The notes below the pieces were generated by a model that saw nothing but the letters and a program-made list of their open reading frames with translations, did no database searches and was not told the origin of the DNA. A stretch of DNA of 64,000 nt from a phage, in assembly GCA_025823825.1 (NCBI GenBank), contig GCA_025823825.1_4720.1, one strand, 5' to 3'. The position numbers and the translations under genes are program-made. Of this stretch, positions 1 to 26,652 are shown piece after piece; positions within the stretch are counted from its first letter, which is position 1, and every line of letters begins with the position of its first letter.

Positions 1-1025
1 TAGTTCAATACATTTCCTAACCCAACCTGAGCCTTGGTTACCCCATGTGGGTTATTGGTGTTGCCGGTATGGGTTGTCAACGTAGCGTTAACGTTATCGA
101 TACGCGTGCTTAAGCCATCGGTGATTGCTTTGATTGCGGCTCGTACGCCCGCTGGTGTTGTGTACAGATTTGTGGCCGTACCGGTAATGGTTGTATTACT
201 ATCAGCTACACCGTAGTTCTCAACGTTTCCGAGTCCCACCTGGGCTTTCGTTACCTTGTGTGGGTTGTTGTAGTTGCTGATGTGCGCAGCAGCACTATCA
301 CCACTCAGGTTAGCGATCATCTTACGCGTCATCGCCAACGTCATGTACAGATTTTCACCGATGGTTTCCAGATCGCTCTCGGTCGCCGTTGTGAAGTTCT
401 GAACATTCCCCAATCCAACTTGAGCCTTGGTTACCCCGTGGGGGTTATCGCGACGATTCTCGTGCTGCAGCAATGCGGTCATTGCTTTATTGAACCCTTC
501 TTCAAGCGGTTCTTTCAATGATTCGATTGCCGCCACCACATCGTCCCACGTCATTGTGTCGGTTTCGACATTATGTTGGTGGTTGATTGGTGGGAATACG
601 GAAGGAACGTCGGCAACCTTTTCCCAGAACGTAACGCGGGGATCGTAAAGGTTGTTGGCTAAAACGTTAAGAATTTGTTGTTGATCAAGTGTAAACTCAC
701 CCCCCAGTGAATAGTAGTTCAGTTGCAACTGTCCACTGAATGCGGTGTCCAACAGCATGATGGAACCGTATAATTCCAGGCCGGTCAGCGCAGCCATGGC
801 ACGGAAGGGGTGAGTGCATAAAAAGTCAACGCCTTCTTCCAGATACGCGTTTGTTTCATGGTTGTAGATCTTTAACCCATTACGGAAATATGGCGCGTAT
901 TTAGGAACGAGAAAGTTAAATCCGGTCCCCGTGGAAGGACGGACAGTGACGAGTTCTTCTGGAACCCATGCGCCATCCAAATTCCCCTGCGGGTTATACG
1001 GAAGGCGTTTAATTTCATCTGTCAT
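1..1025 (-). CDS. tail fibre protein, N-terminal ~340 aa (gene continues past window start)
   Basis: Manual translation from ATG at 1025-1023: MTDEIKRLPYNPQGNLDGAWVPEEL...; three copies of NPH[GK]VTKAQVGLGNV; absent from ORF track because the frame runs off the window edge. Confidence 0.6.
   Translation of the reverse strand, partial: MTDEIKRLPYNPQGNLDGAWVPEELVTVRPSTGTGFNFLVPKYAPYFRNGLKIYNHETNAYLEEGVDFLCTHPFRAMAALTGLELYGSIMLLDTAFSGQLQLNYYSLGGEFTLDQQQILNVLANNLYDPRVTFWEKVADVPSVFPPINHQHNVETDTMTWDDVVAAIESLKEPLEEGFNKAMTALLQHENRRDNPHGVTKAQVGLGNVQNFTTATESDLETIGENLYMTLAMTRKMIANLSGDSAAAHISNYNNPHKVTKAQVGLGNVENYGVADSNTTITGTATNLYTTPAGVRAAIKAITDGLSTRIDNVNATLTTHTGNTNNPHGVTKAQVGLGNVLN
21..450 (-). repeat. 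three ~45-nt in-frame coding repeats (approx 21-65, 211-275, 399-450) encoding the NPH-VTKAQVGLGNV fibre repeat
   Basis: Near-identical DNA segments ...gagccttggttacc(c/t)(c/t)(a/g)tgtgggtt... seen three times within the partial tail-fibre CDS. Confidence 0.7.
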
Positions 1026-1092
1026 GATGCGCCCTTTACAAGTTGTTAGTAAGTATGGGATACCCTGGGGTATCCTGTGTTAACAGCGGTAA

Positions 1093-1100
1093 AATATTAC
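1093..1100 (+). promoter_or_regulatory. AATATTAC motif about 30 nt upstream of the 1130 start (candidate phage promoter)
   Basis: aaaatattactgtaactataaaataagggggcctctccc then ATG. Confidence 0.3.
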
Positions 1101-1129
1101 TGTAACTATAAAATAAGGGGGCCTCTCCC

Positions 1130-2410
1130 ATGTATACATTGGTAAAAACTTACGGGTTACCCGTAGGTTCTGGCACGGCCTGGACAGCGCTTGAGGCGGG
1201 TGAAAGTGTCCTGAGTACGTTGTTCTCAACGTATCAAAAACTCAAGATCCAGGTCCACGAAAGCTATGCTGACCAGCAACAAGTTATTGATCTGTACACA
1301 TTTCAATCCGAGCTTCAAAACAGCAGCGATACGCTCAATGCGTGGTTGAAAGCGAAATCGGATGCGCATACCAACCTTCGTGGACAGCCCGGCGAGCTGT
1401 CGATTAAAACCCACAAGCTTTATTGTCACGACGCTATTACTGTAGGCTTTCTCCCTAAAGTCGGTAATAGTGGCTATCATCCGAGCAACGCGATCCCTGA
1501 GTCGGAACGCACTGATATCCTGTTGACGAAAGCGAATACGAATTACGAAAATATCGGCAAACACTGCTTGTTCACCGTAGGCGGTTATGTTCATCCTCAT
1601 GTTTACGGTAAAGACGTTGGTGTCTATATCCAGGGCGGGTTCAAGACGGCACAGCGCGGCCAAGAAAACGATATCGGCATGATTGATTTTAGCCGTATCG
1701 GGAGTTTGGAAATTCATGCTATCACAGAAGAGATGATTGCTGATTCCACGAAGCTCTTGCCGTATAAGGACGAGATGTATTTACGGCTACCGCGCAAGGT
1801 CGCCGAAGATGAAACCGTCGCGCTGGTGTTCGGGGGATATTTACATCTTCTTGACGATTGTTACACGATCGTTAGCGACACGACGGCGAAAATAAACTGC
1901 ATTAACATGTTTCTCTATGAACGATACTTCCGTTCCCGTAAATACCTTGATCTAACATCTCTTGGTATTCTGTTGAACGAAGAAGACCCACAGTCCGACA
2001 TTGTTGCCAATCGTTTATTGTCCGATAAAGCATTAAAAGCGTGGGTGACGCATCCTTGCAGTTTCTGGGTGTATATCAAAGCAACATCAATTCAGGTTAC
2101 GCAAGAACCTTTACCACGAAGTGGTGTACCAGGACAATATTTCTTAGGTAAGAAACCGGAAGGATTGATTCGAGCCGATCTTGGTGAGTTACCGGCTTAC
2201 GTGCAGACCTATGAAAAACCGTTATGGGTACTTCACTCGCGCTGGGGACTTCGTAAGAATATGTTGTTTGAAAATACGTTGTACAAACATACCCGCGTTA
2301 AGCGACTTAACGATACGCCTTATCTTCACCAGGTTTGGTTGGAAACGCATGCAACGTTGCAGACAGTACACAAGCTCGAATTGATCGATTCCAGTCAGAA
2401 AAACAAATAA
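1130..2410 (+). CDS. hypothetical protein (426 aa)
   Basis: Long ORF, ATG start, SD-like aaggggg upstream, AATATTAC motif about 30 nt upstream; ends at hairpin element. Confidence 0.7.
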   Translation: MYTLVKTYGLPVGSGTAWTALEAGESVLSTLFSTYQKLKIQVHESYADQQQVIDLYTFQSELQNSSDTLNAWLKAKSDAHTNLRGQPGELSIKTHKLYCHDAITVGFLPKVGNSGYHPSNAIPESERTDILLTKANTNYENIGKHCLFTVGGYVHPHVYGKDVGVYIQGGFKTAQRGQENDIGMIDFSRIGSLEIHAITEEMIADSTKLLPYKDEMYLRLPRKVAEDETVALVFGGYLHLLDDCYTIVSDTTAKINCINMFLYERYFRSRKYLDLTSLGILLNEEDPQSDIVANRLLSDKALKAWVTHPCSFWVYIKATSIQVTQEPLPRSGVPGQYFLGKKPEGLIRADLGELPAYVQTYEKPLWVLHSRWGLRKNMLFENTLYKHTRVKRLNDTPYLHQVWLETHATLQTVHKLELIDSSQKNK

Positions 2411-2415
2411 CCAAA

Positions 2416-2458
2416 CATAACCCTCCTCCAACCCATCAGGGAAGGAGGAGGGAATATG
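2416..2458. terminator. conserved palindromic hairpin element, copy 1 (between convergent genes)
   Basis: cata-aCCCTCCTCC-aaccc-atca-gggaa-GGAGGAGGG-aatatg. Confidence 0.6.
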
Positions 2459-2461
2459 CTG

Positions 2462-3367
2462 TTATGCTACATATAACGTTAGATAACCGTCGATGAGCGT
2501 ATTCATCACACTGAGTTGAAGTACGACAGCTTTACTAACATCCGTACGTACACCAAACGGGAGTGTTTTGAATTGCTCTGGATCGGCTATTACTTTCGCG
2601 TTCTGCAAGTTGAGTGGTCCAGGCATTGACGACAATACCCAGCGATCGTTGACCATAAGGCCGTCGATCTCTTCAGAGAGACCCAATTGCAGTGCGTTCA
2701 TTTCTGCGATTAGTGCCTCCGATTGCGTATCACCTGAGGTTAACGTATACCCATCGGTAAGTGACGCCAGAACACCAGCAGATACGAACCAGTTGTACGA
2801 AACAATAGCGCCTGGGAGTTTACTGCTATCTCGATCGATGATATAATTCAACCCAGCCAACATATTGTTGCGAACGAGGTTGTTGAGGTCGTTATGTCCT
2901 GAAGTTAACTCAACAAGTAATTGACCAACCCATACTTGGTTACCGGGTTTAGGTGTTATCGCAACCTGTATCGGTGACCTGGACTTATCCAGATCCGCGT
3001 CGACAATCTCGGTTTTGTTGAGAAGGATACCGTACGTCGATGCTAAGACAGGTAGGATCTCAGAGACCTTGGTTAATGCATCTAAGGTTTCGATCTCGAT
3101 GGGCCAGTGGTGCTGTCCGCCAGACCAAGTACCCAGTTTACCAAGATCGATGCGGTTATAATAGATGTCGACAGAGTTCACCAGCCCTGAACCAGGTTGG
3201 GGATGCACGGTTAACTTGCTGTTACGCTTGTACCCTGTGCTTTCAGAAGCTTCACCGATAACCAGTTTATCCAGCGTTACGCCTCGAGCATCGAAATCGC
3301 TATGCTTTCGAATCAGCCGAAAGAGGATTTCTTTCGATTCTAACCCCAGGATTTCACTGTACTCCAT
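2462..3367 (-). CDS. virion/fibre-associated protein, paralog family F member 1
   Basis: 301-aa ORF; shares YKRN..., YY(N/D)RI..., TDRWVL...NL(Q/Y)NAKV motifs with 4284-5135 and 5146-6081. Confidence 0.65.
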   Translation of the reverse strand: MEYSEILGLESKEILFRLIRKHSDFDARGVTLDKLVIGEASESTGYKRNSKLTVHPQPGSGLVNSVDIYYNRIDLGKLGTWSGGQHHWPIEIETLDALTKVSEILPVLASTYGILLNKTEIVDADLDKSRSPIQVAITPKPGNQVWVGQLLVELTSGHNDLNNLVRNNMLAGLNYIIDRDSSKLPGAIVSYNWFVSAGVLASLTDGYTLTSGDTQSEALIAEMNALQLGLSEEIDGLMVNDRWVLSSMPGPLNLQNAKVIADPEQFKTLPFGVRTDVSKAVVLQLSVMNTLIDGYLTLYVA

Positions 3368-3382
3368 TTAACACCTCTTAGG

Positions 3383-4267
3383 TTACGGTAGGATTTCTGC
3401 GCCCGTCGGGCCTGCCTTACGAGCTTCCAACGCACCAAGGTCGTATTTCAGTGTCAGCGTATCGTTGGTGGTATAAAGGTTGTGGTAAGTCGAAATCAGA
3501 TCGGTAACCTGCGCGCCGACGATTTCGTTCATGTCGAAGGTAGAACCTTGACCATCATCAGCACGAACGATTTTATCGCCAGCAGAGACCATCCCAATTT
3601 CAGAAATAACCGCGTACTCTTCACCACCTTCTGTGAGTTTAGCCACATTGAGATATTCGTTAATATCCCATGGCGTCCAAACCAAAGAGACTTTACAGCT
3701 GTAGTCGTAGTACTCCCCGGTCGCTACCAGAATTCCGGTTGTTGGAATATCCGGTCGGGCGGGGTTGAGGTTCGCGTCGGTTGGATGCCATTCGATGGTC
3801 TGAGCGACGCCGTCGACGTATTTGGTATAACGCATGGAGCGGACAACGTTATCGAAATCGATGCGACGACCGTAATAACAGATATACTTTTTACCGCTTT
3901 CCAGTGTCTCAATACGACGTAACCCAAATTTAGCGCGTTCGTCTGTGGTTAAGTCGTTACCAACCTCACGCATTACGAAAGGTTTGATTTTCCACGGTGA
4001 AAGATCGCTTGCTTCGTGAGCGATCGGCATCGAGGAAGGGATACCGTTAGCGTTGCGGATGAATTCGTGACCCTGGTTGCCGATACAGAAGTAACGTACA
4101 GCAGGATTACCCTCGGGGTAAACCTTTGATTGAATCTGAAGCTTTTCATTCAAGGTGCTGTGTTCTTCCCACGCATGAGGAAGACCGAGCGTAAGGTTAG
4201 TTTGTACTTGACCGCCGATAATCGTACGGACGATACGATCGGTAGCACGGATTTGTGTAGAAGCCAT
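3383..4267 (-). CDS. hypothetical protein (294 aa)
   Basis: Long ORF in tight tandem with neighbours. Confidence 0.65.
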   Translation of the reverse strand: MASTQIRATDRIVRTIIGGQVQTNLTLGLPHAWEEHSTLNEKLQIQSKVYPEGNPAVRYFCIGNQGHEFIRNANGIPSSMPIAHEASDLSPWKIKPFVMREVGNDLTTDERAKFGLRRIETLESGKKYICYYGRRIDFDNVVRSMRYTKYVDGVAQTIEWHPTDANLNPARPDIPTTGILVATGEYYDYSCKVSLVWTPWDINEYLNVAKLTEGGEEYAVISEIGMVSAGDKIVRADDGQGSTFDMNEIVGAQVTDLISTYHNLYTTNDTLTLKYDLGALEARKAGPTGAEILP

Positions 4268-4283
4268 GTCTTTTCCTATTTAA

Positions 4284-5135
4284 TCAGTTATATTGCATCA
4301 ACAGGATACCGCCGTAGTTCGTGCAGTAATCTTGGCTAAGCGTAACGATAACAGCGTTAGCGAACGCGGGGTTAACAGGATAACCCTGTGCGATAAGTTC
4401 TGTTGTTTTACCGGTTGCAAGCACGGTGGCTCCGTAAAGGTTGTTTTCGTCTTCACGGCCGTTATAAACCCACGGGGTTGGTGCAACGTTGTTGAATAAG
4501 CTAACCAATGCGCTTAAGTTACCACCAACTTTTAACCCAGCAAGATCGGAACGGATCGCTGTACAGTCTATAGCGTAACTGTAGACCAGTGCCTGGATAC
4601 GATTTGCGGTGTAGTACGGGAAATTGAGACCGGTCATCACCGTGGTCTTCATCATCCCCGCAATATCGTGGGCACTATCGAGAAGATAGAACGTAACGCT
4701 CCCCGTCCAAGCCAATCCGGTTGTTTTCAATTCTACGGTGTGTGGGAACGGATATTCATCGCCTCGTACAATCGGAGAATCGACGCAGCTATCCTGATCG
4801 ATAACGATACCGTACGTTGATTGAATCAGAGGGATAAGATCGTGTGTCGTTTTAACCCCGGCATCGATAGCAAGCTTCGGTTCCATCCCCAAGAAGAAGT
4901 CTTGAATAGGGATACGATCGTACCACACGTAGCTGCTTTCACGGTATTGTGCTGGTGTTACTGTTGCCGAAGGCGATACTTTCGCGCGGGTGTTCCGTTT
5001 ATACGCATGGTTTCCGTTTTCAGCAACATCCGTGATATCAAGTGCATCGAAGTTAAAGTCGAAGTCAGGATTGGCTGCCTGAATAAGTTCAGCGACCAGT
5101 ACTTTAGGACTTTTGTTTAACAATTTCTGACTCAT
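4284..5135 (-). CDS. virion/fibre-associated protein, paralog family F member 2
   Basis: 283-aa ORF; shares AYKRNT, LAWTGSV and C-terminal motifs with 2462-3367 and 5146-6081. Confidence 0.65.
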   Translation of the reverse strand: MSQKLLNKSPKVLVAELIQAANPDFDFNFDALDITDVAENGNHAYKRNTRAKVSPSATVTPAQYRESSYVWYDRIPIQDFFLGMEPKLAIDAGVKTTHDLIPLIQSTYGIVIDQDSCVDSPIVRGDEYPFPHTVELKTTGLAWTGSVTFYLLDSAHDIAGMMKTTVMTGLNFPYYTANRIQALVYSYAIDCTAIRSDLAGLKVGGNLSALVSLFNNVAPTPWVYNGREDENNLYGATVLATGKTTELIAQGYPVNPAFANAVIVTLSQDYCTNYGGILLMQYN

Positions 5136-5145
5136 TGTTTATTCC

Positions 5146-6081
5146 TTAGCCTTGTTCTTCTGGAGAACGACCCTGGAGGCTTGCGGTATGTCCGTCGACG
5201 TTGTAATAGAAAATCAATGGACCGCCAACGGCAGTACAGTAGTTTTCATCCAGACTGATCTCGATACCGTATTGGTAACCTGCTCTTGCTGGAATACGTC
5301 CGCCTAACTCACCGTTGAAAGCCACTTTAGCATTATACAGGTTATACGGTGCGACATTGTCGTCTAATACCCAACGATCGGTAGTCATTTCAGCCAGAAG
5401 ATCGGCAACCACCACATCGCTAATAACTGTACCTGTTACCAGCGAAGCCAGCAGTTCACCGTAATCAGAGGTATCACGACTGTAACTGTAAATCTCACCG
5501 CTAGCGCGTACGCCTTGACCAAAGAACTTAAGACCATCCAGCTCCTTGATCGCGATAATATCATCAAGATTCGGTACACGCGACTTCATCAAGATACGAA
5601 CGCTCCCCGTCCAAGCCAGGCAGTTAGATGCGACACGAAGCAATTGTCCGTTAACAGTATCCCAGTTAAGTTCGTCGTTGACGATTTCTTCCGCGGTAAG
5701 ACCAAGACCGAAACGTTCTTTGATGATAGGCCAGATATCACGCATCTTGGCGGCGTCTGGCGCATCGATAAGAATAGGAGCTACGTTACGCAGATACGCA
5801 CCGATGTTAATACGGTCGTAATACAGTGTCGTCGAACCTTCGTAATCGTCTAACTCGGTAAGCTTAGCGGTTGCTGTCGCCGTAATCTGGGTGTCGCGCT
5901 CATAGGCGCTTTGGTTGGTGGTTGGTGTTCCTAAAACCAATAATTCAGGGGTTAGGATATGCTCTCCGTTCTGAGGTGGGTTATCGTGGTTGATAAGACC
6001 ATACACGAGATCGGATGAGGGTAAAGAGACGTCGACCGGGTAAAGTTCGGTGTCGTCAATAGTTGTTACCGTATCACTCAC
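5146..6081 (-). CDS. virion/fibre-associated protein, paralog family F member 3
   Basis: 311-aa ORF; LYYDRINIG, LAWTGSV, TDRWVLDDNVAPYNLYNAKV shared with family. Confidence 0.65.
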   Translation of the reverse strand: MSDTVTTIDDTELYPVDVSLPSSDLVYGLINHDNPPQNGEHILTPELLVLGTPTTNQSAYERDTQITATATAKLTELDDYEGSTTLYYDRINIGAYLRNVAPILIDAPDAAKMRDIWPIIKERFGLGLTAEEIVNDELNWDTVNGQLLRVASNCLAWTGSVRILMKSRVPNLDDIIAIKELDGLKFFGQGVRASGEIYSYSRDTSDYGELLASLVTGTVISDVVVADLLAEMTTDRWVLDDNVAPYNLYNAKVAFNGELGGRIPARAGYQYGIEISLDENYCTAVGGPLIFYYNVDGHTASLQGRSPEEQG

Positions 6082-6140
6082 GGTGACCTCCTCGCCAGGA
6101 ATTAGATAAAAAAGACTTTACGATTTGCTGCGCTATCACG

Positions 6141-8621
6141 TTAAACGTCCTCGATAGGCAAAGGTTTAACAATCAAACGATTGAGCGGATTCGATAGACG
6201 CATACTGATAGGCTTATACGCAACATGATTCGTCTCACTTAGAGCCACTGATCTGAAACGACCGTTCAACCGTTTGTAAATCGGTTCTATCCAGAGACCT
6301 CGAAGATCACGTTTACGGAAACGTTGTTCGAACGGTTTGATTGGGGTTACGGTTAACCCACGCAACGACTCTGATGGCAGACGCTCACGAAGGTCGCGTG
6401 GTGCCCGACCTGGGAACGGTGCAAGCCACAAACCATCGAGCGGATTTTTACGGAAACGCAACGAGACAGGATCGCTAATGACTTGTGCCCAATATTGCGT
6501 ACTGAATCGAACGGTTTGGGTGTTCTCGTAACCACTACAATCACACCAGGTTGGTTTCGGAGGCGCTTCCAAACTTTCAACCGCCGATTCACGCCAGTTC
6601 GTCATCGGGTTGTTATCATGTACGAATTTGATAACTTCCGTAGCCTGGTTATCCGTATCATGAACGTTTGCCTGTGCCCAGTCTTCCCACAGTTCTTCAC
6701 TACCACTTACTAAACTCGAACCGAGACGAACGGCGATTTTATTTAGTGGTTTGATTGGGTCACTGTTGATTGTCTGGATAAAATGGATGGTGTAACTGCT
6801 CAATGTCTTAAGCAGCTGCAGCATTCCGTATTGAATATCCTTAAGACTGGTGACATCTTCCAAATCCTGGCCGGTGGCCTTTGTGAAGATATCGAGAGCC
6901 AGAATACCCGCCTCTTCTTGACTGATTGCGTCAAGCTCCCAATCCATCGATAAGAACCATTCCTTGTAAAGCTGTCCAATACCGAAGTCGACACCAACAT
7001 CCATGTAGAAGTTTTCAACGATTGCTTCAGCCATGCCTCGAGCTTGATAATGTTCTTGGAGCTGATACATGAACTGATGGCGACGCCAGCCCTGGTAAAT
7101 CTCGGTAACGGCGCTCAGAAACTCTTCAGTACTGACGACAGCACGCAGCGTCACTTGCTTATCCAAACACCACCAGATCAGTTTATCGGGAATGATAGCA
7201 GGATCGGTAATGCTACGGAGATGGTCGAATGTCGGTAGCGTTAACACCCTGACGTGGTTAGCATGGATCTTAGGTACTTCAATCAGCGTCATGCCCATCG
7301 AATAGTTCAGCAAATACAAGAACAGCTTGTATGCATCTTTCATCGACATCGTCATGGTATCACCCGTCACCGGGTTGGTTGTCGTTAACCGTGACTGATA
7401 CATGCCTATCGCGCTAAGATGAATCCATTCGTTCAGCAGGAAATCATACTTAGGATACAGTTCACTGTCTGTAAGGTCTTCGGCTTCACTTTCCAACACC
7501 TTGGTCGTTAAGGTATTGTTGTCATGCATCGACATCTTCTCTATCGTGCGGTTAAGCTCGGTATAATACTCCGCTTCGTTATCCCGCGCTAGAGGGAACT
7601 GTTGCTGCATCACGGTGGTGACCTTACGTCTTACCGTGCCATTACCGACGATCTCTTGAAGGTTAAGCGGTTTACGCTCCATGTAAACTGCGGGTTTTAA
7701 CGTCTGGGGTATCTCGGAAGCGTCTTGTTTGATCGAGAACGCACCGATTGGAATTCCACGATCGGTTAATACCTTTTGAATGAGCTTATCGTAGTTTTCC
7801 GTTCTGCCCATGTTTCTTTCAACGTAAGCGATGTTACGATAGAACCAGAGCATTTGGGATTCGGTCATGTATCGCTTGAATCGATCGAGACCTTGATGGC
7901 TTGCCAGATAACTCCAGATATGGAAGCTATGGGCATAATGGGTATGACAGTTTTCCCAACGAATACCTTTTATCATCTCAGGTATTTGTGTGAATAGGAT
8001 GGCGTATAGCGCAGGCCAATGAAGCATATCGACGCTCTCATATGCCGGATGTTCCCAGCGTCTGAAGTAATCGTCGATTTCTTGCTGTAAACGTGGAATA
8101 AGATTGGCCTCGCGTGACTCAACCTCTTGTGTATCGTACCAGAGAATCTCATGATTGCGTGCCGCAATTGCTTTCTCGATATCGATGGGGTTAAGGATAC
8201 CCAAGATCAACATACGTTGTTCCGGGTACCGCGCAATTAAACGATTGAAATAATCTCCACCATACGCGTATTCCCTTGCCGTCATGCGATGCCGTAACAT
8301 GTTTTCCTTGGTGAACTCGATCTCTTCGAGCGTATCCAGGGAATTTACGGTCATCATTGTCTGACAAGGATGATACTCGCCAGCGAGATTCATGTAGTAT
8401 AACCACGTGCGTGGGTCGTCCCCGACGGCCATCTGGTAGACTTCGGAAACCTTGAGGTTTAACCGTTCTGCCGTGATGTCGCTTTTAATAATCAGGGTGT
8501 CCGTTAGACGCTGCACGCTTTCCGAATAAAGCTGATAGTCAGTGTTGGACACGATCGGTCCTCCAAGGAGCCAGTGTAAATGAACGATATAAATAAAGGG
8601 CGCGTCGCCCTCGAACGTCAA
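6141..8621 (-). CDS. large hypothetical protein (~800 aa) with C-terminal triple R(F)RK-PLDGLW repeat
   Basis: Long ORF; track start overlaps the start of the divergent gene at 8580, so true start is probably GTG near 8552 (GGAGG 7 nt upstream). Confidence 0.7.
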   Translation of the reverse strand: MTFEGDAPFIYIVHLHWLLGGPIVSNTDYQLYSESVQRLTDTLIIKSDITAERLNLKVSEVYQMAVGDDPRTWLYYMNLAGEYHPCQTMMTVNSLDTLEEIEFTKENMLRHRMTAREYAYGGDYFNRLIARYPEQRMLILGILNPIDIEKAIAARNHEILWYDTQEVESREANLIPRLQQEIDDYFRRWEHPAYESVDMLHWPALYAILFTQIPEMIKGIRWENCHTHYAHSFHIWSYLASHQGLDRFKRYMTESQMLWFYRNIAYVERNMGRTENYDKLIQKVLTDRGIPIGAFSIKQDASEIPQTLKPAVYMERKPLNLQEIVGNGTVRRKVTTVMQQQFPLARDNEAEYYTELNRTIEKMSMHDNNTLTTKVLESEAEDLTDSELYPKYDFLLNEWIHLSAIGMYQSRLTTTNPVTGDTMTMSMKDAYKLFLYLLNYSMGMTLIEVPKIHANHVRVLTLPTFDHLRSITDPAIIPDKLIWWCLDKQVTLRAVVSTEEFLSAVTEIYQGWRRHQFMYQLQEHYQARGMAEAIVENFYMDVGVDFGIGQLYKEWFLSMDWELDAISQEEAGILALDIFTKATGQDLEDVTSLKDIQYGMLQLLKTLSSYTIHFIQTINSDPIKPLNKIAVRLGSSLVSGSEELWEDWAQANVHDTDNQATEVIKFVHDNNPMTNWRESAVESLEAPPKPTWCDCSGYENTQTVRFSTQYWAQVISDPVSLRFRKNPLDGLWLAPFPGRAPRDLRERLPSESLRGLTVTPIKPFEQRFRKRDLRGLWIEPIYKRLNGRFRSVALSETNHVAYKPISMRLSNPLNRLIVKPLPIEDV

Positions 8622-11489
8622 ATGAGCAATAATGACGTTGCGAAGGCACTCATGAACAAATTTGTCGCTCCTGCTCCGCAGTCACGTCTTTATAATACAC
8701 GTGATGCGGAAGGAGCGAACGGTCGTTTCGGGTTAGTTGTTCCCGACCAAATGACGATGAACACGGTTACGCGTGCGACCGCGACAAACATCGAGGATAA
8801 TAAAAACATCCTCGAGTTGTTCCCTGAACTTAAACGCGTGATGCAGATCTATGTTGCCGCGTTGACGAACCCTAACGATCTTAAGACGGTCGAGATGTTT
8901 ATCGACAGCGAAGATTTCCCCGGCAGAGTCGCAGAAATCGTTCAGCCGATGATCGATACCATCGACACGCATTTTAAGAATATCTATAAAATAAAGACGC
9001 TTATCCCTCGTATCATCGAAGACGTCTTCTTTATCAAGGGCAGTTATAACTTCGTTGTTCTGCCGGAAAGCACGCTCGACCGCGCCATTAATGGTAACGG
9101 TCAACTGAAACTTGAAGAATACGGATTTAAAGACAACCATTTTGCAAGTTGGGGGCTTCTAGGTAACGACAGTCGCAAACGCCACGAAAATCAATTACCT
9201 GCGACGGTTTCGATGGAAGATTATTTCTCGGGTGTTAATGAAACCATACCGTACGATCCTGTTGTTCGCATAGACAGCATCAAGTTTACCAATACCCTGC
9301 TTCGCGATAAGGACGGTAAATTCATTGAAGCGAAGATCGATATTCCGGATATGGTTACGGTTGTCGATAACCCAGACATCCTCCGCATGCCTATTCTGCA
9401 TCAACGTCGAGCAGCGACAGCAGTGCAGCGTGCGTTACGCGCAAACACGTTAGGAGGTAGTGGTTTGGTAACGCTGTCAGGCGATCCGACCCTAACCGCT
9501 AACCGACGTGAGCTGTCGCAAGAACAGGTTAACGAGATCTGGAATAAGCTCAACATCCAGCGCCACACCAAGGTATCGCCCGTTTACGCGCTGGCAACCC
9601 CAGATACGCTTGATCGTCAAAGCGTTGGCCATCCTGGCGTGATGCATGTACCACCTGAGGCATTAGAACCCGTACATGCGCCCGGTGATCCTGAGAACCA
9701 TATCGGGTATTTGGTTCAGTTGGATGAGTTTGGTTATCCAGTACGTTTGGTTGAAGATGCGGCGTATTACAAGCAGTTGGAAGGTCGGTTGTCGAAGATC
9801 ACCGCAGATATCGCAGGTACGTCAAGCAACGGCATGGCGAGCGAGATGATTGGTGCAGCCAAGAACATGATCCAAGGTACGTCATGTAATCAGGTAGACA
9901 TGTCGGCCTTCGTATCATCGTACGAATCGCTGATGCAACGTTACATTGTCGAACGTATCGTTAACGGTTATCTTGGCAGTGCGGTGGAGATCGGTGCGAC
10001 ATCGTCGTTTTATCTGTCGATGCTTGCTCGTAGCCTCGCTCACAAGCAGACCCGTGTTTTGTTTATTCCTCGAGAGATGGTGACTTACATCGCCTATGAA
10101 TACAACAAATACGGTATCGGTCGTTCGCTGCTTGAAAGTACGAAGATGATCTCATCGCAACGAGCCATGCTCATGGTTCAAGAACTGATGGCAAAAATCA
10201 AAAGTTCGTTGAACTATACGACGCTAAGCGTAATGCTTGAAGACACCGACAGAAACCCGGTCGATACCGTCGAACAAGCGCTGCATAGTTTCGCTCGTGT
10301 CTACCAGTCTGGTTTCCCGTTGGGTGAAACTAACCCGATGGATATCATCAACGCGTACGAACGAAGCTCGATTCGATTGAAGGTTGAGGGGAATAACCCA
10401 CGCTTCCCGAAATTGAATACAGACGTCAGTGTTGAGCAGCGTAACTATCAGTCTCCTGATAATGAGCTGATGGATCGTTACCGTCGTGACCATTTCATGG
10501 GCTTGGGTGTGTCTCCGGAGATTATCGATACTTCCTACCAATCTGAATTCGCAGCTTCTGTGATTACAGCTAACGCGATGCAAGAGAAACAGTTCACGGT
10601 TTGTCGTGAGGTGATCACGAATGGGTTATCGGACCACATCAAGAAATATACGGCATACAGTCCCGTGTTGTTGACGTCGTTACGAAACACGGTTCGTGCG
10701 AACATGTCTAAGCTTTCCCAGGCACAATTGAAGCAGCTTTTTGGTAGCGATTTCGAAAACGGTGTTATCCGTAACGTTAACGCCTATCAGGAGATTGACG
10801 ACCAATCAGCAACAATGGATCTGGATTACACTAAACCAGAAGTCCAGGAAGTTATTGCCGATGCTTATGTGTCCATGTTCTTAAACAGCCTGCGTGTGCG
10901 TTTACCGGATAGCAATGCTCGTCGCCTTGAAGATCAGGTACGTGAATATAATCAGTACAAGGAAGCGATTACTGCGCAACTTGATGATTATTTAACGCCC
11001 GATTACGTCATGGGTCTGGGTGGGGTTGATGAAACAACGCTGCAGATGATCCGCGCATGCATTATTGGTACCGCGATGCGTACGTGGGCAAAAGAGAACA
11101 ACTTCAATCAGGAGCTGGCTGATCTCTTCAGTCTTGACGATAAGAAGAATGCCGTGCAAGATTGGAAACGTATGTCCATGGAACATATTGAAGTCATGGG
11201 TAAATGCATGGGTGATTTTGCATTGTATATTCAGAATCTGACGAAGAAGATTGAAGAGAAGATGGGAGCTCAAGCACAGGACGGTAGCGTTTCATCTGAT
11301 GGTTCGTGGTCATCCGATTCAAGTAGCGATACCGGTTCTTCTGATGACTTCGGTGGCGGTGACGATTTCGGAGATACCGATTTCGATACCGAAACGATGG
11401 AGGAAACCTCAACAGAAGAAACAACCACATCTGAGGATACGACGACCGACACAACGTCAGAAGACGATACTTCAGGTGACATTGTCTAA
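8580..11489 (+). CDS. large hypothetical virion-type protein (969 aa) with acidic Ser/Thr/Asp-rich C-terminal tail
   Basis: Long ORF, AAGGAG 9 nt upstream of ATG; C-terminus SSDGSWSSDSSSDTGSSDDFGGGDDFGDTDFDTE... Confidence 0.75.
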   Translation: MNDINKGRVALERQMSNNDVAKALMNKFVAPAPQSRLYNTRDAEGANGRFGLVVPDQMTMNTVTRATATNIEDNKNILELFPELKRVMQIYVAALTNPNDLKTVEMFIDSEDFPGRVAEIVQPMIDTIDTHFKNIYKIKTLIPRIIEDVFFIKGSYNFVVLPESTLDRAINGNGQLKLEEYGFKDNHFASWGLLGNDSRKRHENQLPATVSMEDYFSGVNETIPYDPVVRIDSIKFTNTLLRDKDGKFIEAKIDIPDMVTVVDNPDILRMPILHQRRAATAVQRALRANTLGGSGLVTLSGDPTLTANRRELSQEQVNEIWNKLNIQRHTKVSPVYALATPDTLDRQSVGHPGVMHVPPEALEPVHAPGDPENHIGYLVQLDEFGYPVRLVEDAAYYKQLEGRLSKITADIAGTSSNGMASEMIGAAKNMIQGTSCNQVDMSAFVSSYESLMQRYIVERIVNGYLGSAVEIGATSSFYLSMLARSLAHKQTRVLFIPREMVTYIAYEYNKYGIGRSLLESTKMISSQRAMLMVQELMAKIKSSLNYTTLSVMLEDTDRNPVDTVEQALHSFARVYQSGFPLGETNPMDIINAYERSSIRLKVEGNNPRFPKLNTDVSVEQRNYQSPDNELMDRYRRDHFMGLGVSPEIIDTSYQSEFAASVITANAMQEKQFTVCREVITNGLSDHIKKYTAYSPVLLTSLRNTVRANMSKLSQAQLKQLFGSDFENGVIRNVNAYQEIDDQSATMDLDYTKPEVQEVIADAYVSMFLNSLRVRLPDSNARRLEDQVREYNQYKEAITAQLDDYLTPDYVMGLGGVDETTLQMIRACIIGTAMRTWAKENNFNQELADLFSLDDKKNAVQDWKRMSMEHIEVMGKCMGDFALYIQNLTKKIEEKMGAQAQDGSVSSDGSWSSDSSSDTGSSDDFGGGDDFGDTDFDTETMEETSTEETTTSEDTTTDTTSEDDTSGDIV

Positions 11490-11513
11490 ACGGATGTAAA
11501 AAAAAAAATAACA

Positions 11514-11563
11514 CATAGTTAACCTTCTCCCCAACCCGATGAGGGAAGGGGAGAAGGGCTATG
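11514..11563. terminator. conserved palindromic hairpin element, copy 2 (convergent); A10/T10 run adjacent
   Basis: cata-gttaaCCTTCTCCCC-aaccc-gatga-gggaa-GGGGAGAAGG-gctatg. Confidence 0.6.
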
Positions 11564-11574
11564 CGCTATTTAAT

Positions 11575-11850
11575 TTATTTCGAGGTTAACCACGATTCAA
11601 TTATGGTGAGTTTGCTTCTCAGTACGCGCCAACTAGGGTGTGGTGGGATCACAGCGCCATTGTCGATTACGGTTAGCTGAACCTGGTACTTCTGTTGCAT
11701 ACGCGCTACCGTGTCGCTTATCGAGAGGAAAAGCTGGTAACGTTCATATGCCGTCAGTTCACTGTCCTGTTGAACTGCGTTGGCTGCTAACGTAATTTCG
11801 CGTAAGTCCTTTGCATCCACAGAGACGGTAATGAGTTTATATTGACTCAT
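11575..11850 (-). CDS. small hypothetical protein (91 aa)
   Basis: ORF between hairpin element and the next gene; no recognisable motifs. Confidence 0.5.
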   Translation of the reverse strand: MSQYKLITVSVDAKDLREITLAANAVQQDSELTAYERYQLFLSISDTVARMQQKYQVQLTVIDNGAVIPPHPSWRVLRSKLTIIESWLTSK

Positions 11851-11911
11851 ACGGTTTCCTTATCAACTAGGGTATTGCAAATACAATACCCACCGTCGGA
11901 CGATAAGTTAA

Positions 11912-14470
11912 TTACTGCTCTTCACGTTCCAGCAGATACTCGGAAGCGGTAATACCGTTTACCGTACGTACTGCTTTCAGACGAGTATCATCGCTCAGAA
12001 TTACAGTAACAGATTGCAGACCTTTTACTTTGGTTTCGAAGGTCTTGAACACCTGATCCAGCATACGAGCAATGCTTGGGTTGGTTGCAGCCGATGCGTG
12101 AGTGTAACCGCTCTGATTCAGCTTCAGAATCTTGGCGTTGGTCGGTACGCGAACAACAACATGTGGGCGCATCGCGAATACGCTGTGATTGAACCAGTAA
12201 GCGTCGTTACTATCTTCGTCGGTAACGATGTCTGGATTAACACGCATATCCTCGACAGCCGCATCCGCCAAACGACGTTCGATTTCATCGGCGTCCAGAG
12301 AGCCATCTTTCTCCAGTTCTGCACGATACTCACTCATGGCAACCAGATGACGTTCACGATTCGCTGCAGATTTTTCGTGAGCGGCTTTCAGGTAGTCATG
12401 CATGTTGTACAGTTCAGCCATGGAAAGACGAATGTTCCACTGACCTTCGCCATCACGATTGCAGTAGAGACACTTCAGCATGTTGACCCAGGTGTAGTAG
12501 CAATTGGCGAATTCATCTTCAATGAACTTCTGGTCCATTTTAAGATCGTGAATCAGCCAACCGGACAGTTCTCCGATATCATCAACGAAGCTAGAGATGG
12601 TGGTTTCAGAGAAGTTCTTCGGTACGATACGTTTGATCAGCTTATTGACGTCTTTGGTCATGCTATCGTTCAGGAAATGCCAGATACGCAGAGGAATGAC
12701 ATCTCGATACTGTTGCATGATCTGACGATAAGCTTTGATATCGTCGCTACGACCTTTATCAATAGACAACGCATCCAGGAATTCATGGATTGCATCCAGC
12801 TCTTTGTCGGTATAGGTTCCCAGATAGGAATTGACGGTGGCCAGGAATGCTAATGCGTCGTTTTGGTTGACGTCGGTGTTGGTCTGCTGAATGATCGCCA
12901 CTGCAGCTTTAGTTTCAGCATCCTCAACGCTTGACGCTGCGATCGCGTCGGTGACGGTAAACAGTTTCATTTCGCGCTGTTCACCGACAACGATTGGCTC
13001 ACGCTGAACCGGCTTGTTAAGACTAACGCGAACAACTTCTGCTTGCGCGATACGATCCAGTTTTGCCATTTCCTGCTCTGCCATACGACGAGCGGTTGGA
13101 TCTGATTCAAGTTCGATGTATTCCACTTCTTCCTCCGTGAGGGATGTAATGTCAACAATGGTTTCATGAAGAATTCCGTTTTCGTCGATACGTGCCCGAC
13201 GAGCGAAGTGCCTGAAGTCATACAACGTCGGCCAACGACAATTAGGCGCATAGTCTTTGGCTTTCAGACGCATCTGCATAAATTCATCATGTTGAACAAC
13301 ACGACCGTAACGCTTAGCATCTTCGGTCGCATCAATTGGATTAACGGTCTTTGTTGCCGTAGCGGAACGAGCCGTACGAACCGGTTCCGGTTTCACCTGT
13401 GCCGGTTCAGGTTGAACGGGTTTCTGCTGTCCAGCCTTAACATGCCATTCTGGCTCTTCGTACTGTTCAGCAAATTGCTCAGCCGCTGCAAAGATATCGT
13501 TGATACCACCAATATCTCCTTCAGGATTTGTCGAGTAAATCCGTGGTTGCGGTGCCTCGTAACGCGGCGCTGTAGCAGCAGGTGCCTCATCAACGTTATG
13601 ATCGTCATCACCAACATCATACAAACGGTTGAACGCACAATCCTTCGAATCAATGTACGATGGTGTTTGTGGTTGGACAACCGTAGGCCGAGGTTGTGCG
13701 CCGTATCCTGGTGTTGTTGGAGCCATACCACGCATAACTGCCGGGTTAGGTTGGTATTGTGGTTGCGGGTAGGTTCCACCATACGTGGCGTACGCAGGCT
13801 GTTGCGGTTGACCGTATCCACCACCAACCATCGCACTTGCTTGCGGCCCACGATAAGTCATCCCCATCTGCATCACCTGCTGCTTCAAACCGCGTGACTT
13901 CTGAGCGATTTGCGCTAGGCTTCCGCTTTTATTCAGCTGCGTGTACTTATTCGCGGCTTCCGGGTTAATGCGTGATAATTCGATCGCGCGATAATATTCC
14001 GGGTACTGATTAGGTTCAAAGAGCCACGTTACAAGATGATACAGCGCAACTGTGCTCACAGCAGCAGAGACGATCTGGTCGTCGGACGCGTTCTGTGGCA
14101 TCGGGTTGATGTAAGAGAACACGTTCCAACAACAGTCTTCAACAAGCGATTCCATCATCATATCGTTATTGGTATAACGTGCGACGAACTCGGTTTGTAT
14201 TTTGTCTTGCTGAGCGAAGTCTTTCAGGACATTAAAGATGGCTTGACGGATTTTGACGATCGTCGCTTCTTGGGTGATGAAGTTATAGTTCTGCTGATAT
14301 GAGGGTTGTTGGTATTGTGGTGGTTGATAGGCGTTATTCGGGTATGCGCCGTACGGCGATTGCTGATACTGTTGCTGACGAACCTGTTCAGCCGCATGAT
14401 TAATCGTGCTCGTATAAGGGTTTTCGCTATAGCCCATTTGCTGATACATGTTGTTACTGCCATTATACAT
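11912..14470 (-). CDS. hypothetical protein (852 aa) with Q/Y/P/G-rich low-complexity regions
   Basis: Long ORF; N-terminus ...QQQYQQSPYGAYPNNAYQPPQYQQPSYQQNY... and internal GGGYGQPQQPAYATYGGTYPQPQYQPNP... Confidence 0.75.
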   Translation of the reverse strand: MYNGSNNMYQQMGYSENPYTSTINHAAEQVRQQQYQQSPYGAYPNNAYQPPQYQQPSYQQNYNFITQEATIVKIRQAIFNVLKDFAQQDKIQTEFVARYTNNDMMMESLVEDCCWNVFSYINPMPQNASDDQIVSAAVSTVALYHLVTWLFEPNQYPEYYRAIELSRINPEAANKYTQLNKSGSLAQIAQKSRGLKQQVMQMGMTYRGPQASAMVGGGYGQPQQPAYATYGGTYPQPQYQPNPAVMRGMAPTTPGYGAQPRPTVVQPQTPSYIDSKDCAFNRLYDVGDDDHNVDEAPAATAPRYEAPQPRIYSTNPEGDIGGINDIFAAAEQFAEQYEEPEWHVKAGQQKPVQPEPAQVKPEPVRTARSATATKTVNPIDATEDAKRYGRVVQHDEFMQMRLKAKDYAPNCRWPTLYDFRHFARRARIDENGILHETIVDITSLTEEEVEYIELESDPTARRMAEQEMAKLDRIAQAEVVRVSLNKPVQREPIVVGEQREMKLFTVTDAIAASSVEDAETKAAVAIIQQTNTDVNQNDALAFLATVNSYLGTYTDKELDAIHEFLDALSIDKGRSDDIKAYRQIMQQYRDVIPLRIWHFLNDSMTKDVNKLIKRIVPKNFSETTISSFVDDIGELSGWLIHDLKMDQKFIEDEFANCYYTWVNMLKCLYCNRDGEGQWNIRLSMAELYNMHDYLKAAHEKSAANRERHLVAMSEYRAELEKDGSLDADEIERRLADAAVEDMRVNPDIVTDEDSNDAYWFNHSVFAMRPHVVVRVPTNAKILKLNQSGYTHASAATNPSIARMLDQVFKTFETKVKGLQSVTVILSDDTRLKAVRTVNGITASEYLLEREEQ

Positions 14471-24272: not shown

Positions 24273-24719
24273 TTAGAAATTATTGCCGAACTGGTTATGG
24301 TTATATGGTTGGTAGTGTCCGTAATTACCTGGGAAGCCACCATACGGCACAGGCTCCGGTTTAGGGATTTCCATGGTCGGATTTTTGGAATTGATTGCCA
24401 TCACGTAAATTGTTACGGGTGATACCGCGCGATTCATTTCGACGGCCACACGACGGATGTAGCCAACGTATGCTGTTATTGCAGGCATTAGCTTGTCCCC
24501 TTCGGTAGTTATAACGGTACCATCAGAAAGAATCTCGCGAACCGCGCACCATTTACCAAGATGAACGCCTTGCTGCGGCTTTATTCCAGTAGCGATAGAG
24601 AGATAGGTATCGTACGTCGTTTGATGATTCGGATGGCTATAGATAGATTCTGCTTTGGTTTCGTCTTTTCCTAAGTATTCGCCTTGCATGGGGGTAGGAG
24701 TTGATGAAGAATGTGGCAT
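24273..24719 (-). CDS. paralog family C member (148 aa)
   Basis: AAGGAG RBS; shares (Y)xHPxxxTTYDxYL(S/T)I...G(K/E/A)W(C/R)(A/M/I)(V/I)REI...DG(T/R)(V/I)(I/V)T with 24831-25691 and 25745-26545. Confidence 0.65.
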   Translation of the reverse strand: MPHSSSTPTPMQGEYLGKDETKAESIYSHPNHQTTYDTYLSIATGIKPQQGVHLGKWCAVREILSDGTVITTEGDKLMPAITAYVGYIRRVAVEMNRAVSPVTIYVMAINSKNPTMEIPKPEPVPYGGFPGNYGHYQPYNHNQFGNNF

Positions 24720-24830
24720 GTTCGATTCTCCTTCGAGTTGTTTGATCGATTGTTCAACTGGTACTGATTACGATTGGTTGATAACAGTAGAGCTACCGCT
24801 TAAAAACTCTACCGTTGTTTAGATACCGTA

Positions 24831-25691
24831 TTAGGATATACGGTGCATCGTCGGTGCGATTGGTCGTTGACCAAGGTAGAATGTATATCTCGGACGATTC
24901 TTCGGTGCCTGGTTTGGTTGAGGATTCTTCGAATCGATAGCTAACACATAGTACTGAAGTGTGGGGTTGAGTGTCGTCAGATAGTTTCTGATGAACTCCT
25001 TGTTTAAACTTTCAGTCGGGGTTAATACATGTCCGTTGATTGTAACGACGGTGCCGTCGGAACGTATTTCACGAACAATGCACCAGGCCCCCGCACCAAC
25101 ATCGGTAGGGATAGTCGTGCTGGGTGTGATGGTTAGATATTTATCGAAGAATTCGCAGCAAAGAGGATGCTTATAGACCGTTACGGTATCATCTCCTGGC
25201 GAGGTTCTCTCTTTTGTTACAAGATCCATTGCTGGTACGAAAGTGTTGATTTTGGCAACCTTATCGGCATCTTCGTTCGCTTCGATATAAATCTCTGCTT
25301 TACCGTACACGCTCTGAACTAAACGACGTAACTGTTCGTATGTTTTCGGTGAGGTTAGCTGCACCCGACTGAGCAGTTCATCGTACCAAGCTTCGAAGGT
25401 GCTTGTTGGTATCTTAACGTATGCCTTATTCCCGGTTTCATTTTCATCCCGGAAGATAATCGCAACGGTATCAGGCTCGTCAAGAGAGTCCAGGTAAACG
25501 ATGTGCTCGACCAACGCAGAAAATGTCTTACGTCCAATTCCCCCATAGTACGGGATTGCTGAATGAACCAGCCGCCAGTTACATGAAGTTTGGATATGAT
25601 CGAAGGCGTTGATCATGTTTTTACTATAACGAAAAATTTCAGTAAAATATTCTTTACGTTCTTTACTAAGACGTTTGTATATCTTGGTCAT
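24831..25691 (-). CDS. paralog family C member (286 aa)
   Basis: gaggag RBS; conserved C-terminal domain GAWCIVREIRSDGTVVTINGHVLTP...YYVLAIDSKNP. Confidence 0.7.
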   Translation of the reverse strand: MTKIYKRLSKERKEYFTEIFRYSKNMINAFDHIQTSCNWRLVHSAIPYYGGIGRKTFSALVEHIVYLDSLDEPDTVAIIFRDENETGNKAYVKIPTSTFEAWYDELLSRVQLTSPKTYEQLRRLVQSVYGKAEIYIEANEDADKVAKINTFVPAMDLVTKERTSPGDDTVTVYKHPLCCEFFDKYLTITPSTTIPTDVGAGAWCIVREIRSDGTVVTINGHVLTPTESLNKEFIRNYLTTLNPTLQYYVLAIDSKNPQPNQAPKNRPRYTFYLGQRPIAPTMHRIS

Positions 25692-25744
25692 TTTTGTAGC
25701 TCCTCGATTAAAGTAAAGATGAACGCGATCATTTATTATCGCTT

Positions 25745-26545: not shown

Positions 26546-26608
26546 GATTGTATCCTCGGTTATTAAGAGAAATTTACAGTGATAACAGTAACCGTTGTCA
26601 TCACCTTA

Positions 26609-26632
26609 GTAATATAGCCATGAAATAAACTG
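26609..26632 (-). promoter_or_regulatory. conserved upstream element with TATATTAC (candidate phage early/middle promoter) for 25745-26545
   Basis: Minus strand reads CAGTTTATTTCATGGCTATATTAC; near-identical 24-nt element at 63139-63162. Confidence 0.45.
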
Positions 26633-26652
26633 GAGTAACGCGCTTAAGACAG

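Follow-up and report, generated by a model that had tools for sequence, protein, structure and literature searches.

This analysis concerns the left end of a 64,000-nucleotide stretch of phage DNA (contig GCA_025823825.1_4720.1 of GenBank assembly GCA_025823825.1; hereafter the window, 64 kb), where a tail-fibre gene and three genes of the DUF7941 family lie among genes for baseplate proteins. In a search of a phage collection, window 1-12000 matched only Goslar records, with 97.5% nucleotide identity to positions 25326-37323 of Escherichia phage vB_EcoM_Goslar, and Goslar 25326-87560 is collinear with the entire window. By this sequence identity, the source phage is closely related to Goslar, a jumbo phage of E. 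coli and a nucleus-forming chimallivirus. We read window 1-8552 as most probably the gene cluster for the outer (peripheral) baseplate and the tail fibre of such a Goslar-like chimallivirus, arranged in two transcription units, and we refer to its genes by the names of their Goslar orthologs. The locus holds the following features (aa, amino acids):

1-1025, minus strand: 5' part of the tail-fibre gene (N-terminal 341 aa); Goslar gp029 (717 aa) ortholog, phiKZ gp131 homolog
1026-1129: intergenic region between the divergent fibre and gp30 genes, presumably holding both promoters
1130-2410, plus strand: gp30 ortholog, 426 aa; phiKZ gp130 homolog
2421-2452: hairpin with a 9-bp G+C stem, CCCTCCTCC...GGAGGAGGG, read from the sequence between the convergent gp30 and gp31 genes
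2462-3367, minus strand: DUF7941 paralog, 301 aa; Goslar gp31 ortholog
3383-4267, minus strand: DUF7208 baseplate spoke protein, 294 aa; Goslar gp32 ortholog, phiKZ gp139 homolog
4284-5135, minus strand: DUF7941 paralog, 283 aa; Goslar gp33 ortholog
5146-6081, minus strand: DUF7941 paralog, 311 aa, GTG start; Goslar gp34 ortholog
6141-8552, minus strand: baseplate upper-wedge protein, opening the gp35-to-gp31 unit; Goslar gp35 ortholog, phiKZ gp128 homolog
8580-11489, plus strand: portal protein, divergent from the wedge gene; Goslar gp36 ortholog, phiKZ gp129 homolog

A preliminary description of this DNA had listed a partial fibre gene and three paralogous genes downstream of it. The three paralog open reading frames (ORFs) are real, but gp30 (1130-2410) and gp32 (3383-4267) had been overlooked, and the paralogs, while present nearby, neither adjoin the fibre gene nor all adjoin each other. 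The fibre gene is set apart from them by the opposite-strand gene at 1130-2410 and the convergent terminator hairpin at 2421-2452. Additionally, the gene at 3383-4267, which has no BLASTP similarity to the paralogs, interrupts the DUF7941 series between 2462-3367 and 4284-5135. The Goslar annotation marks a terminator at the site equivalent to the hairpin, which we interpret as closing the gp35-to-gp31 transcription unit. For the source phage, a sigma-70 promoter scan yielded 6 promoter-like sites where 13.3 were expected, and a terminator scan 10 terminator-like sites where 8.6 were expected. Neither was informative, and the hairpin at 2421-2452 was missed owing to its long loop.

The three ORFs at 2462-3367, 4284-5135 and 5146-6081 are mutual paralogs, as had been proposed, with BLASTP identities of 24-26% and E values of 2e-10 to 2e-20. 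The C-terminal motif said to unite them, [TN]DRWVL...NL[QY]NAKV, is literally present in 2462-3367 and 5146-6081 and degenerate in 4284-5135 (TPWVY...NLYGATV); it sits in the C-domain and includes a nearly invariant tryptophan, Trp237. All three proteins match the Pfam family DUF7941 (PF25613) end to end, with E values of 5e-48 to 3e-63 and no extra domain. Against a curated cut-off of 27 bits, the scores were 189.7 bits for 2462-3367 (E 9e-56, aa 6-299 of 301), 164.4 bits for 4284-5135 (E 5e-48, aa 4-283 of 283) and 214.2 bits for 5146-6081 (aa 17-294 of 311). A hidden Markov model (HMM) built from 110 relatives found exactly the gp31, gp33 and gp34 genes in the window. The family is large, comprising 1741 clusters at 50% identity (E<=0.001) that include N-domain-only forms of ~170 aa, tandem forms and long fusions.

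The same HMM searched against the PDB found one sequence, PHIKZ127 in entry 9xqd (E 1.2e-37), which is described as the outer periphery of the baseplate complex in phage phiKZ. A single-sequence PDB search with the gp34 ortholog gave no match; thus, the link to phiKZ gp127 needed a profile and a fold comparison. The AlphaFold 2 (AF2) model of 5146-6081 has a mean predicted local distance difference test score (pLDDT) of 91 and a predicted template modelling (TM) score of 0.62. It consists of two globular alpha/beta domains, an N-domain (~aa 15-166) and a C-domain (~aa 193-295), joined by a lower-confidence linker (~aa 167-192), and among known structures its fold matches phiKZ gp127 alone. No fibre, spike or receptor-binding fold was found among the structural neighbours of this model, nor is it fibrous or beta-helical. 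The preliminary description had called the paralogs fibre-type proteins; with DUF7941 as their only domain and a globular, gp127-like two-domain fold, that label does not hold.

Their association with the tail, in contrast to their fibre nature, is borne out. In phiKZ, the outer baseplate holds gp127 at a fixed position, with a single subunit in each star lobe, and each spoke is a band of five gp139 dimers ending at gp127 (PMC13250141). All three Goslar orthologs are present in virions, at ~8.5 (gp31), ~112 (gp33) and ~27 (gp34) copies (Table S4, bioRxiv 10.64898/2026.04.21.720040). With gp127 in the outer baseplate and the orthologs in virions, the evidence does not indicate absence from the virion tail, which would have spoken against the preliminary description. 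The Goslar study names ten DUF7941 proteins, gp31, gp33 and gp34 among them, and reports that purified gp22 forms filaments in vitro by negative stain, that AlphaFold 3 predicts head-to-tail joining of DUF7941 proteins, and that a gp126-gp127 dimer was fitted into previously unassigned phiKZ outer-baseplate density (bioRxiv 10.64898/2026.04.21.720040). Its authors propose a baseplate-anchored 'DUF7941 fiber cloud', which they call speculative, and note that the DUF7941 proteins gp86, gp92 and gp161 of Goslar carry carbohydrate-binding, glycosidase or leucine-rich repeat (LRR) domains (bioRxiv 10.64898/2026.04.21.720040).

We also observed a weak match to the DUF7941 N-domain in phiKZ gp158 (27469-28419 of the phiKZ stretch searched; E 6e-7, profile positions 63-146), which is outside the three phiKZ DUF7941 proteins of the same preprint (bioRxiv 10.64898/2026.04.21.720040). 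It is possibly a fourth, divergent member. One-to-one orthology of gp31, gp33 and gp34 with phiKZ gp126, gp127 and gp143 was considered and set aside on account of ambiguous pairwise scores.

The fibre ORF begins with an ATG at 1025 on the minus strand, has 341 codons inside the window and continues past its left edge. The parts that could be delimited within it are:

645-968, minus strand: beta-rich N-terminal domain, aa 20-127 (AF2 pLDDT above 90)
456-548, minus strand: long alpha-helix, aa 160-190 (AF2 helix)
402-446, minus strand: repeat core copy 1, NPHGVTKAQVGLGNV, aa 194-208
222-266, minus strand: repeat core copy 2, NPHKVTKAQVGLGNV, aa 254-268
9-53, minus strand: repeat core copy 3, NPHGVTKAQVGLGNV, aa 325-339

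The three NPH[GK]VTKAQVGLGNV repeats reported earlier for this gene were each confirmed by position, and no further copy occurs in the six frames of the 64-kb window. At the DNA level the copies are 68-72% identical over 71 nucleotides, with spacings of 213 and 180 nucleotides, and this level of identity indicates old, selectively maintained protein repeats and neither a recent duplication nor chance. Full-length Goslar gp29 contains six repeat units of ~61 aa each (consensus h..N..NPHxVTKAQVGLGNVxNY.vAt..EA..G....YMTP......AI), three of which fall within the window. The AF2 model of the fragment, made from a 105-sequence alignment (mean pLDDT 82), shows the beta-rich domain, the long helix and then helix-loop repeat units.

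Homology to phiKZ gp131 extends over both the N-domain and the repeats (BLASTP 30% identity over 332 aa, E 9e-46). At its start, the alignment pairs aa 4 of the window-encoded protein with aa 5 of gp131; the gp131 region aligned to the repeats reads NPHRVTKAQVGL. The phiKZ virion structure assigns gp131 as a baseplate fibre; twelve such fibres are anchored beneath gp130, docking through six gp131-like N-domains, and their bases contain a six-helix bundle (PMC13250141). By analogy, the beta-rich domain at aa 20-127 is probably the baseplate-docking domain, equivalent to the gp131 N-domain, and the helix at aa 160-190 may form a helical-bundle stalk. For Goslar, gp29 is described as a likely tail fibre, and virion mass spectrometry (MS) labels it 'Tail fiber' at ~75 copies per virion (range 50-118; bioRxiv 10.64898/2026.04.21.720040). 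A tblastn search found the gp131-like N-domain at one place only in Goslar. Because gp29 is the only Goslar gene with this domain, ~75 copies would fit 12 fibres with six N-domains each, or 72.

Relatives of the fibre protein are widespread. A tblastn search with the repeat region hit 469 phage records, among them Felixounavirus tail fibres, SPbeta YomR-like proteins and phiKZ-like phages, and many of these records are annotated as tail fibre or YomR. The N-terminal 189 aa hit 285 records, mostly of jumbo phages, and the complete genomes listed all exceed 210 kb. A large protein database yielded 2158 relatives at E<=1e-5, some of which end in Peptidase_S74 or Collar, classical fibre C-termini, and the ~61-aa repeat unit is present in over 2000 protein clusters. 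Many PHROG families that carry the annotation 'tail fiber' or 'tail protein' also match the fragment, several of them via the repeats. Thus, the identification of the left-edge gene as a tail-fibre gene stands, given the gp131 homology, the MS label of its ortholog and the repeats in annotated fibres. On these homologies, it is a genuine gp131-family tail-fibre gene whose baseplate-proximal half lies in the window.

The curated models were of little help with this protein. Pfam tail-fibre repeat models had been proposed as a check, and neither the fragment nor full-length Goslar gp29 gave a relevant Pfam match at E<=1; no NCBIfam model matched either of them, and only the PHROG tail-fibre families did. 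Matches to YfdX, FKBP_N_2 and Blr_divisome in the Pfam and NCBIfam scans were sub-threshold and attributed to chance. A PDB profile search with the 61-aa repeat matched no chain. Ribosomal L18e/S13 matches of gp29 in the PDB (E 0.007-0.6) were likewise rejected as chance since they align on the low-complexity repeat region and lack any biological link. With Foldseek, T4 gp12/gp34 and neck proteins of phages gave weak matches (probability 0.3-0.95, TM score below 0.35) that were unusable, and a literature search on the 'GLGNV' motif gave unrelated papers only. Full-length Goslar gp29 has no match to the seven-bladed C-terminal propeller (PDB 4gbf), and the fibre C-terminus lies beyond the window. 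We regard gp29, from its sequence, as a member of the gp131 family with a different tip.

Several observations were made around the fibre gene. A protein cluster (P0157) is 100% identical to fibre aa 1-226 (window 348-1025) and is named by NCBI as a partial hypothetical protein from a Salmonella enterica serovar Montevideo assembly, and the gp34 ortholog's cluster (P0001) counts 361 sequences from public read-set assemblies. Thus, this phage or a near-identical one recurs in enterobacterial sequencing data. In Goslar, the genes that follow the fibre gene, in the region immediately beyond the window's left edge (1-4814 of the Goslar stretch compared), are gp28, gp27, gp26 and gp25, of which gp26 has 867 aa and gp27 has a weak Lyase_8 super-sandwich match (E 9e-4). 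Goslar gp25 carries NPH...GLGNV repeats and an annotated Peptidase_S74 domain and lacks a gp131-like N-domain. Goslar gp25-gp28 probably make up distal portions of the fibre, and host-range variation is best sought there.

The neighbouring genes connect the locus to solved baseplate structures. The gp30 ortholog is 98.2% identical in nucleotides to Goslar gp030 and matches phiKZ gp130 both by BLASTP (E 1e-27) and in the PDB (9xqd_L, PHIKZ130, E 3.7e-24). In phiKZ, gp130 is the outer-baseplate protein beneath which fibres dock, with 12 copies (PMC13250141), and Goslar virions contain ~18 copies of gp30 by MS (bioRxiv 10.64898/2026.04.21.720040); 12 gp130-type copies would fit this estimate. The gp30 and fibre genes are divergently paired, as are gp130 and gp131 in phiKZ, and we count this pair as the other of the two units of the cluster.

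The gp32 ortholog at 3383-4267 belongs to Pfam PF23838 (DUF7208; E 1e-97) and matches the solved Goslar chains 11lx/11pb/36za (E 1e-200, 99% identical) as well as phiKZ gp139 (9xpg, E 1.6e-42); DUF7208 spoke genes are single-copy in 259 phage records. Dimers of Goslar gp32 form the spoke filament (bioRxiv 10.64898/2026.04.21.720040), and six spokes joining the inner and outer baseplate are seen by cryo-electron microscopy (cryo-EM) in both Goslar and phiKZ (bioRxiv 10.64898/2026.04.21.720040; PMC13250141). The wedge protein at 6141-8552 matches Goslar 11lx_Bh (E 0), 36za_sR and phiKZ gp128 (9xqs_C, E 1.8e-110), and Goslar gp35 is the upper wedge (bioRxiv 10.64898/2026.04.21.720040). The portal protein at 8580-11489 matches phiKZ gp129 (BLASTP E 6e-75), the portal in the phiKZ structure (PMC13250141). 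As to the wedge start, the mechanical ORF goes back to a TTG codon at 8621, which would make it run into the portal gene, whose start is at 8580; in the Goslar annotation and in the solved 803-residue chain, the start is the ATG equivalent to window 8552.

The preliminary description had also suggested a hotspot of host-range variation here. Compared with Goslar, nucleotide identities and synonymous/non-synonymous changes were 97.4% and 21/5 for gp29 (N-terminal part), 96.9% and 23/5 for gp31, 95.9% and 30/4 for gp33, and 95.3% and 35/7 for gp34. This synonymous excess indicates purifying selection on all four genes. We also compared two metagenomic relatives, L008 (~65% identity) and L009 (~33% identity), with the following amino acid identities:

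gp34: 65% (L008), 33% (L009)
gp33: 58% (L008), 25% (L009)
gp31: L008 contig stops in the spoke gene; 23% (L009)
wedge: 63% (L008), 34% (L009)
portal: 68% (L008), 29% (L009)
polymerase subunit: 69% (L008), 31% (L009)

Gene order is kept in L009, reading portal (plus strand in the window, minus in L009), wedge (plus), DUF7941, DUF7941, DUF7208, DUF7941, followed by a gp30-like gene that is divergent from three fibre genes with gp131-like N-domains. The phage CR5 has an N-domain-only DUF7941 gene between its wedge and spoke genes. From the order and pace shared with L009, the DUF7941 triplication is ancient and has kept its positions, and the paralogs change at the rate of core structural genes. 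By homology, the multiple fibre paralogs in relatives are gp131-type genes, not DUF7941 genes. Thus, with mostly synonymous changes against Goslar, a rate of divergence that matches portal, wedge and polymerase, and a conserved order, a host-range hotspot is not supported for the genes within the window; the receptor-binding end of gp29 lies beyond it. The part of the window most divergent from Goslar is the gp53-gp58 block of PF12699 proteins (32001-41984), which contains indels and in which nucleotide identity is 76% for gp56, 88% for gp58 and 93% for gp53, with relatively numerous non-synonymous changes in gp54, gp55 and gp57. The variability of this block far exceeds that of the fibre and baseplate genes. 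We take the PF12699 proteins to be 'inner body' or injected proteins.

To relate these genes to essentiality, we took insertion counts from the raw transposon-directed insertion-site sequencing (TraDIS) table of a phiKZ transposon study (Table S2, bioRxiv 10.1101/2025.11.23.690004). The DUF7941 genes gp126, gp127 and gp143 had 8, 21 and 5 insertion sites with 3351, 2802 and 332 reads, respectively. In contrast, gp128, gp129, gp131, gp132, gp133 and gp139 had 0 sites and 0 reads, and gp130 had 1 site with 3 reads (bioRxiv 10.1101/2025.11.23.690004). Transposon insertions are absent from phiKZ gp131-135, and the gp131 fibre family is essential in phiKZ transposon sequencing (Tn-seq) (bioRxiv 10.1101/2025.11.23.690004); the insertion indices of gp126 and gp127 resemble that of insertion-tolerant PHIKZ001. 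As we read the raw table, the DUF7941 proteins would be dispensable on the laboratory host, while the spoke, wedge, docking protein and fibres would not. Extrapolated from phiKZ, this dispensability is in keeping with accessory proteins that serve adsorption or decoration. The 'gp139' of a second Tn-seq paper is another phage's gene and was not used.

Taken together, we propose that gp31, gp33 and gp34 are accessory adsorption and structural components of the outer baseplate and not receptor-binding fibres, and we put the probability of this explanation of the cluster as a whole at about three in four. By analogy with phiKZ, gp30 would be part of the outer baseplate platform, and the fibre N-domain and the long helix that follows it would dock beneath it, with the shaft of ~61-aa NPHxVTKAQVGLGNVxN units extending outward from the docking point. 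From homology to solved structures, gp35 builds the wedge, and dimers of gp32 polymerise to make the six spokes. Most likely, gp31, gp33 and gp34 serve in low copy as subunits of the outer baseplate and, as phiKZ gp127 does, sit at the spoke ends or close to them. Head-to-tail joining to other DUF7941 proteins is probable, and in this way they may link the rigid baseplate to flexible DUF7941 filaments, made mainly of gp22/gp23, in which other members would carry sugar-binding, glycosidase or LRR domains. We infer their exact position, partners and filament formation by analogy.

Several points weigh against this proposal. The Goslar outer baseplate map (7.9 Å) lacks density for any DUF7941 protein, so the position of gp31, gp33 and gp34 is extrapolated from phiKZ gp127, and filaments were demonstrated for Goslar gp22 only, in vitro (bioRxiv 10.64898/2026.04.21.720040). 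The three proteins are only 18-23% identical to phiKZ gp127, and its equivalent among them is ambiguous: sequence favours gp33 (BLASTP E 5e-9, against E 8e-5 for gp34 and no match for gp31), whereas gene position favours gp34. On the fibre side, the repeat belongs to no curated Pfam or NCBIfam family and has no solved structure, Foldseek gave no PDB neighbour at E<=0.001 for the fibre fragment modelled as a monomer, and the receptor-binding end of the fibre lies beyond the window edge.

The alternative suggested by the preliminary description, which makes the three paralogs alternative tail fibres for receptor binding that form a multi-receptor apparatus with the left-edge fibre at a host-range hotspot, can draw on their nearness to a real fibre gene, on their presence in the virion and on the carbohydrate-binding, glycosidase or LRR domains of Goslar gp86, gp92 and gp161. 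We consider it very unlikely, because the paralogs consist of the DUF7941 module alone, their predicted small globular alpha/beta domains are unlike any fibre, spike or receptor-binding structure, and they show the conserved order, the mostly synonymous changes and, at 65% and 33% identity, the core-like divergence described above; moreover, the phiKZ DUF7941 homologs tolerate insertions and true fibre genes do not. Even less credible is a role as head or internal (packaged, injected) proteins. PHROG families 1037, 2935 and 3589 carry the category 'head and packaging: virion structural protein', and many high-copy Goslar virion proteins are internal (bioRxiv 10.64898/2026.04.21.720040). That category, however, has been transferred generically, wedge and spoke genes belong to the same operon, and phiKZ gp127, the one family member placed by experiment, lies in the outer baseplate.

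A static role deserves more weight, although we judge it unlikely. Here the DUF7941 proteins would be bricks of the outer baseplate ('star lobe') at fixed positions, and filament formation would be an in-vitro property of gp22 only. The fixed place of gp127, one per star lobe, points this way, as do the low and unequal copy numbers (~8.5, 27 and 112), which look like defined stoichiometries, and the ancient, position-conserved triplication, which suggests three non-interchangeable structural slots. However, the insertion tolerance of the phiKZ DUF7941 genes would be unusual for load-bearing baseplate parts, the shared architecture of N-domain, linker and C-domain is the one predicted to mediate head-to-tail joining, and ~112 copies of gp33 exceed what six-fold slots readily explain. 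The proposed accessory role in adsorption also admits a bolder form, which we offer tentatively and hold to be doubtful: gp31, gp33 and gp34 could be a defined hetero-oligomeric adaptor at each gp32 spoke tip that seeds micrometre-long filaments of gp22/gp23, two very abundant DUF7941 proteins, their copy numbers of ~8.5, 27 and 112 corresponding to successive layers of gp31, gp34 and gp33. If true, such an adaptor would serve specifically to nucleate a new type of adsorption organelle in phages.

Elsewhere in the window, three differences from Goslar were seen. Window 24305-26541, ~2.2 kb between the equivalents of gp046 and gp048, is absent from Goslar and holds two paralogous minus-strand ORFs, 24831-25691 (286 aa) and 25745-26545 (266 aa). 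The C-terminal halves of both resemble the 148-aa ORF 24273-24719 (motifs 'W..VREI..DGT...' and 'AIDSKNP'). The DNA polymerase gene at 56582-58333 is one uninterrupted ORF of 583 aa; in Goslar, gp068 (500 aa) is followed by gp069, a NUMOD1/HNH homing endonuclease (Goslar 81279-82469) with no counterpart in the window, and the difference looks like presence or absence of a mobile intron or endonuclease insertion. Lastly, window 58433-60883 is poorly conserved with Goslar (short 78-96% matches only) and contains a run of small minus-strand ORFs, with apparent paralog pairs at 59236-59664/59671-60066 and 60099-60866/60869-61327.

The locus encodes the least understood part of the virion of nucleus-forming jumbo phages, namely the outer baseplate and the host-recognition appendages, and neither the Goslar nor the phiKZ cryo-EM study fully resolved the outer baseplate (bioRxiv 10.64898/2026.04.21.720040; PMC13250141). 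The DUF7941 modules around the spoke gene focus the question of how a rigid baseplate links to the proposed filament cloud and whether that cloud really enlarges the phage's capture radius. The locus is already known from the Goslar genome annotation and from the Goslar and phiKZ structure papers of April 2026, and its gene identities, family and proposed function appeared in print that year; the window adds a slightly divergent Goslar relative and nothing new beyond that.

Among known systems, Goslar is the closest: gp29-gp36 (NC_048170, 24197-36814) are the same genes in the same order at 95.3-98.3% nucleotide identity, with 4-7 amino acid changes per DUF7941 gene, and the window phage is a distinct isolate or assembly. 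The fibre of the window shares the NPHxVTKxQVGLGNVxN repeat with Felixounavirus tail fibres and SPbeta YomR-like proteins, which are without its chimallivirus N-terminal docking domain. With the phiKZ gp131 family (gp131, gp133, gp134 and gp135) it shares a homologous N-domain, the NPHxVTKAQVGL repeats and a divergent partner gene of the gp130 type, and probably the helix. The Goslar lineage has one gene with a gp131-like N-domain, whereas phiKZ has four or five paralogs, and phiKZ gp131 ends in a seven-bladed propeller (PDB 4gbf), whereas Goslar gp29 ends in six repeats and a short, different C-terminus. The DUF7941 complement differs as well. While phiKZ has one full-length and two N-domain-only proteins (gp126, gp127 and gp143) and encodes its spoke protein gp139 away from them, the window has three full-length DUF7941 genes that flank the spoke gene.

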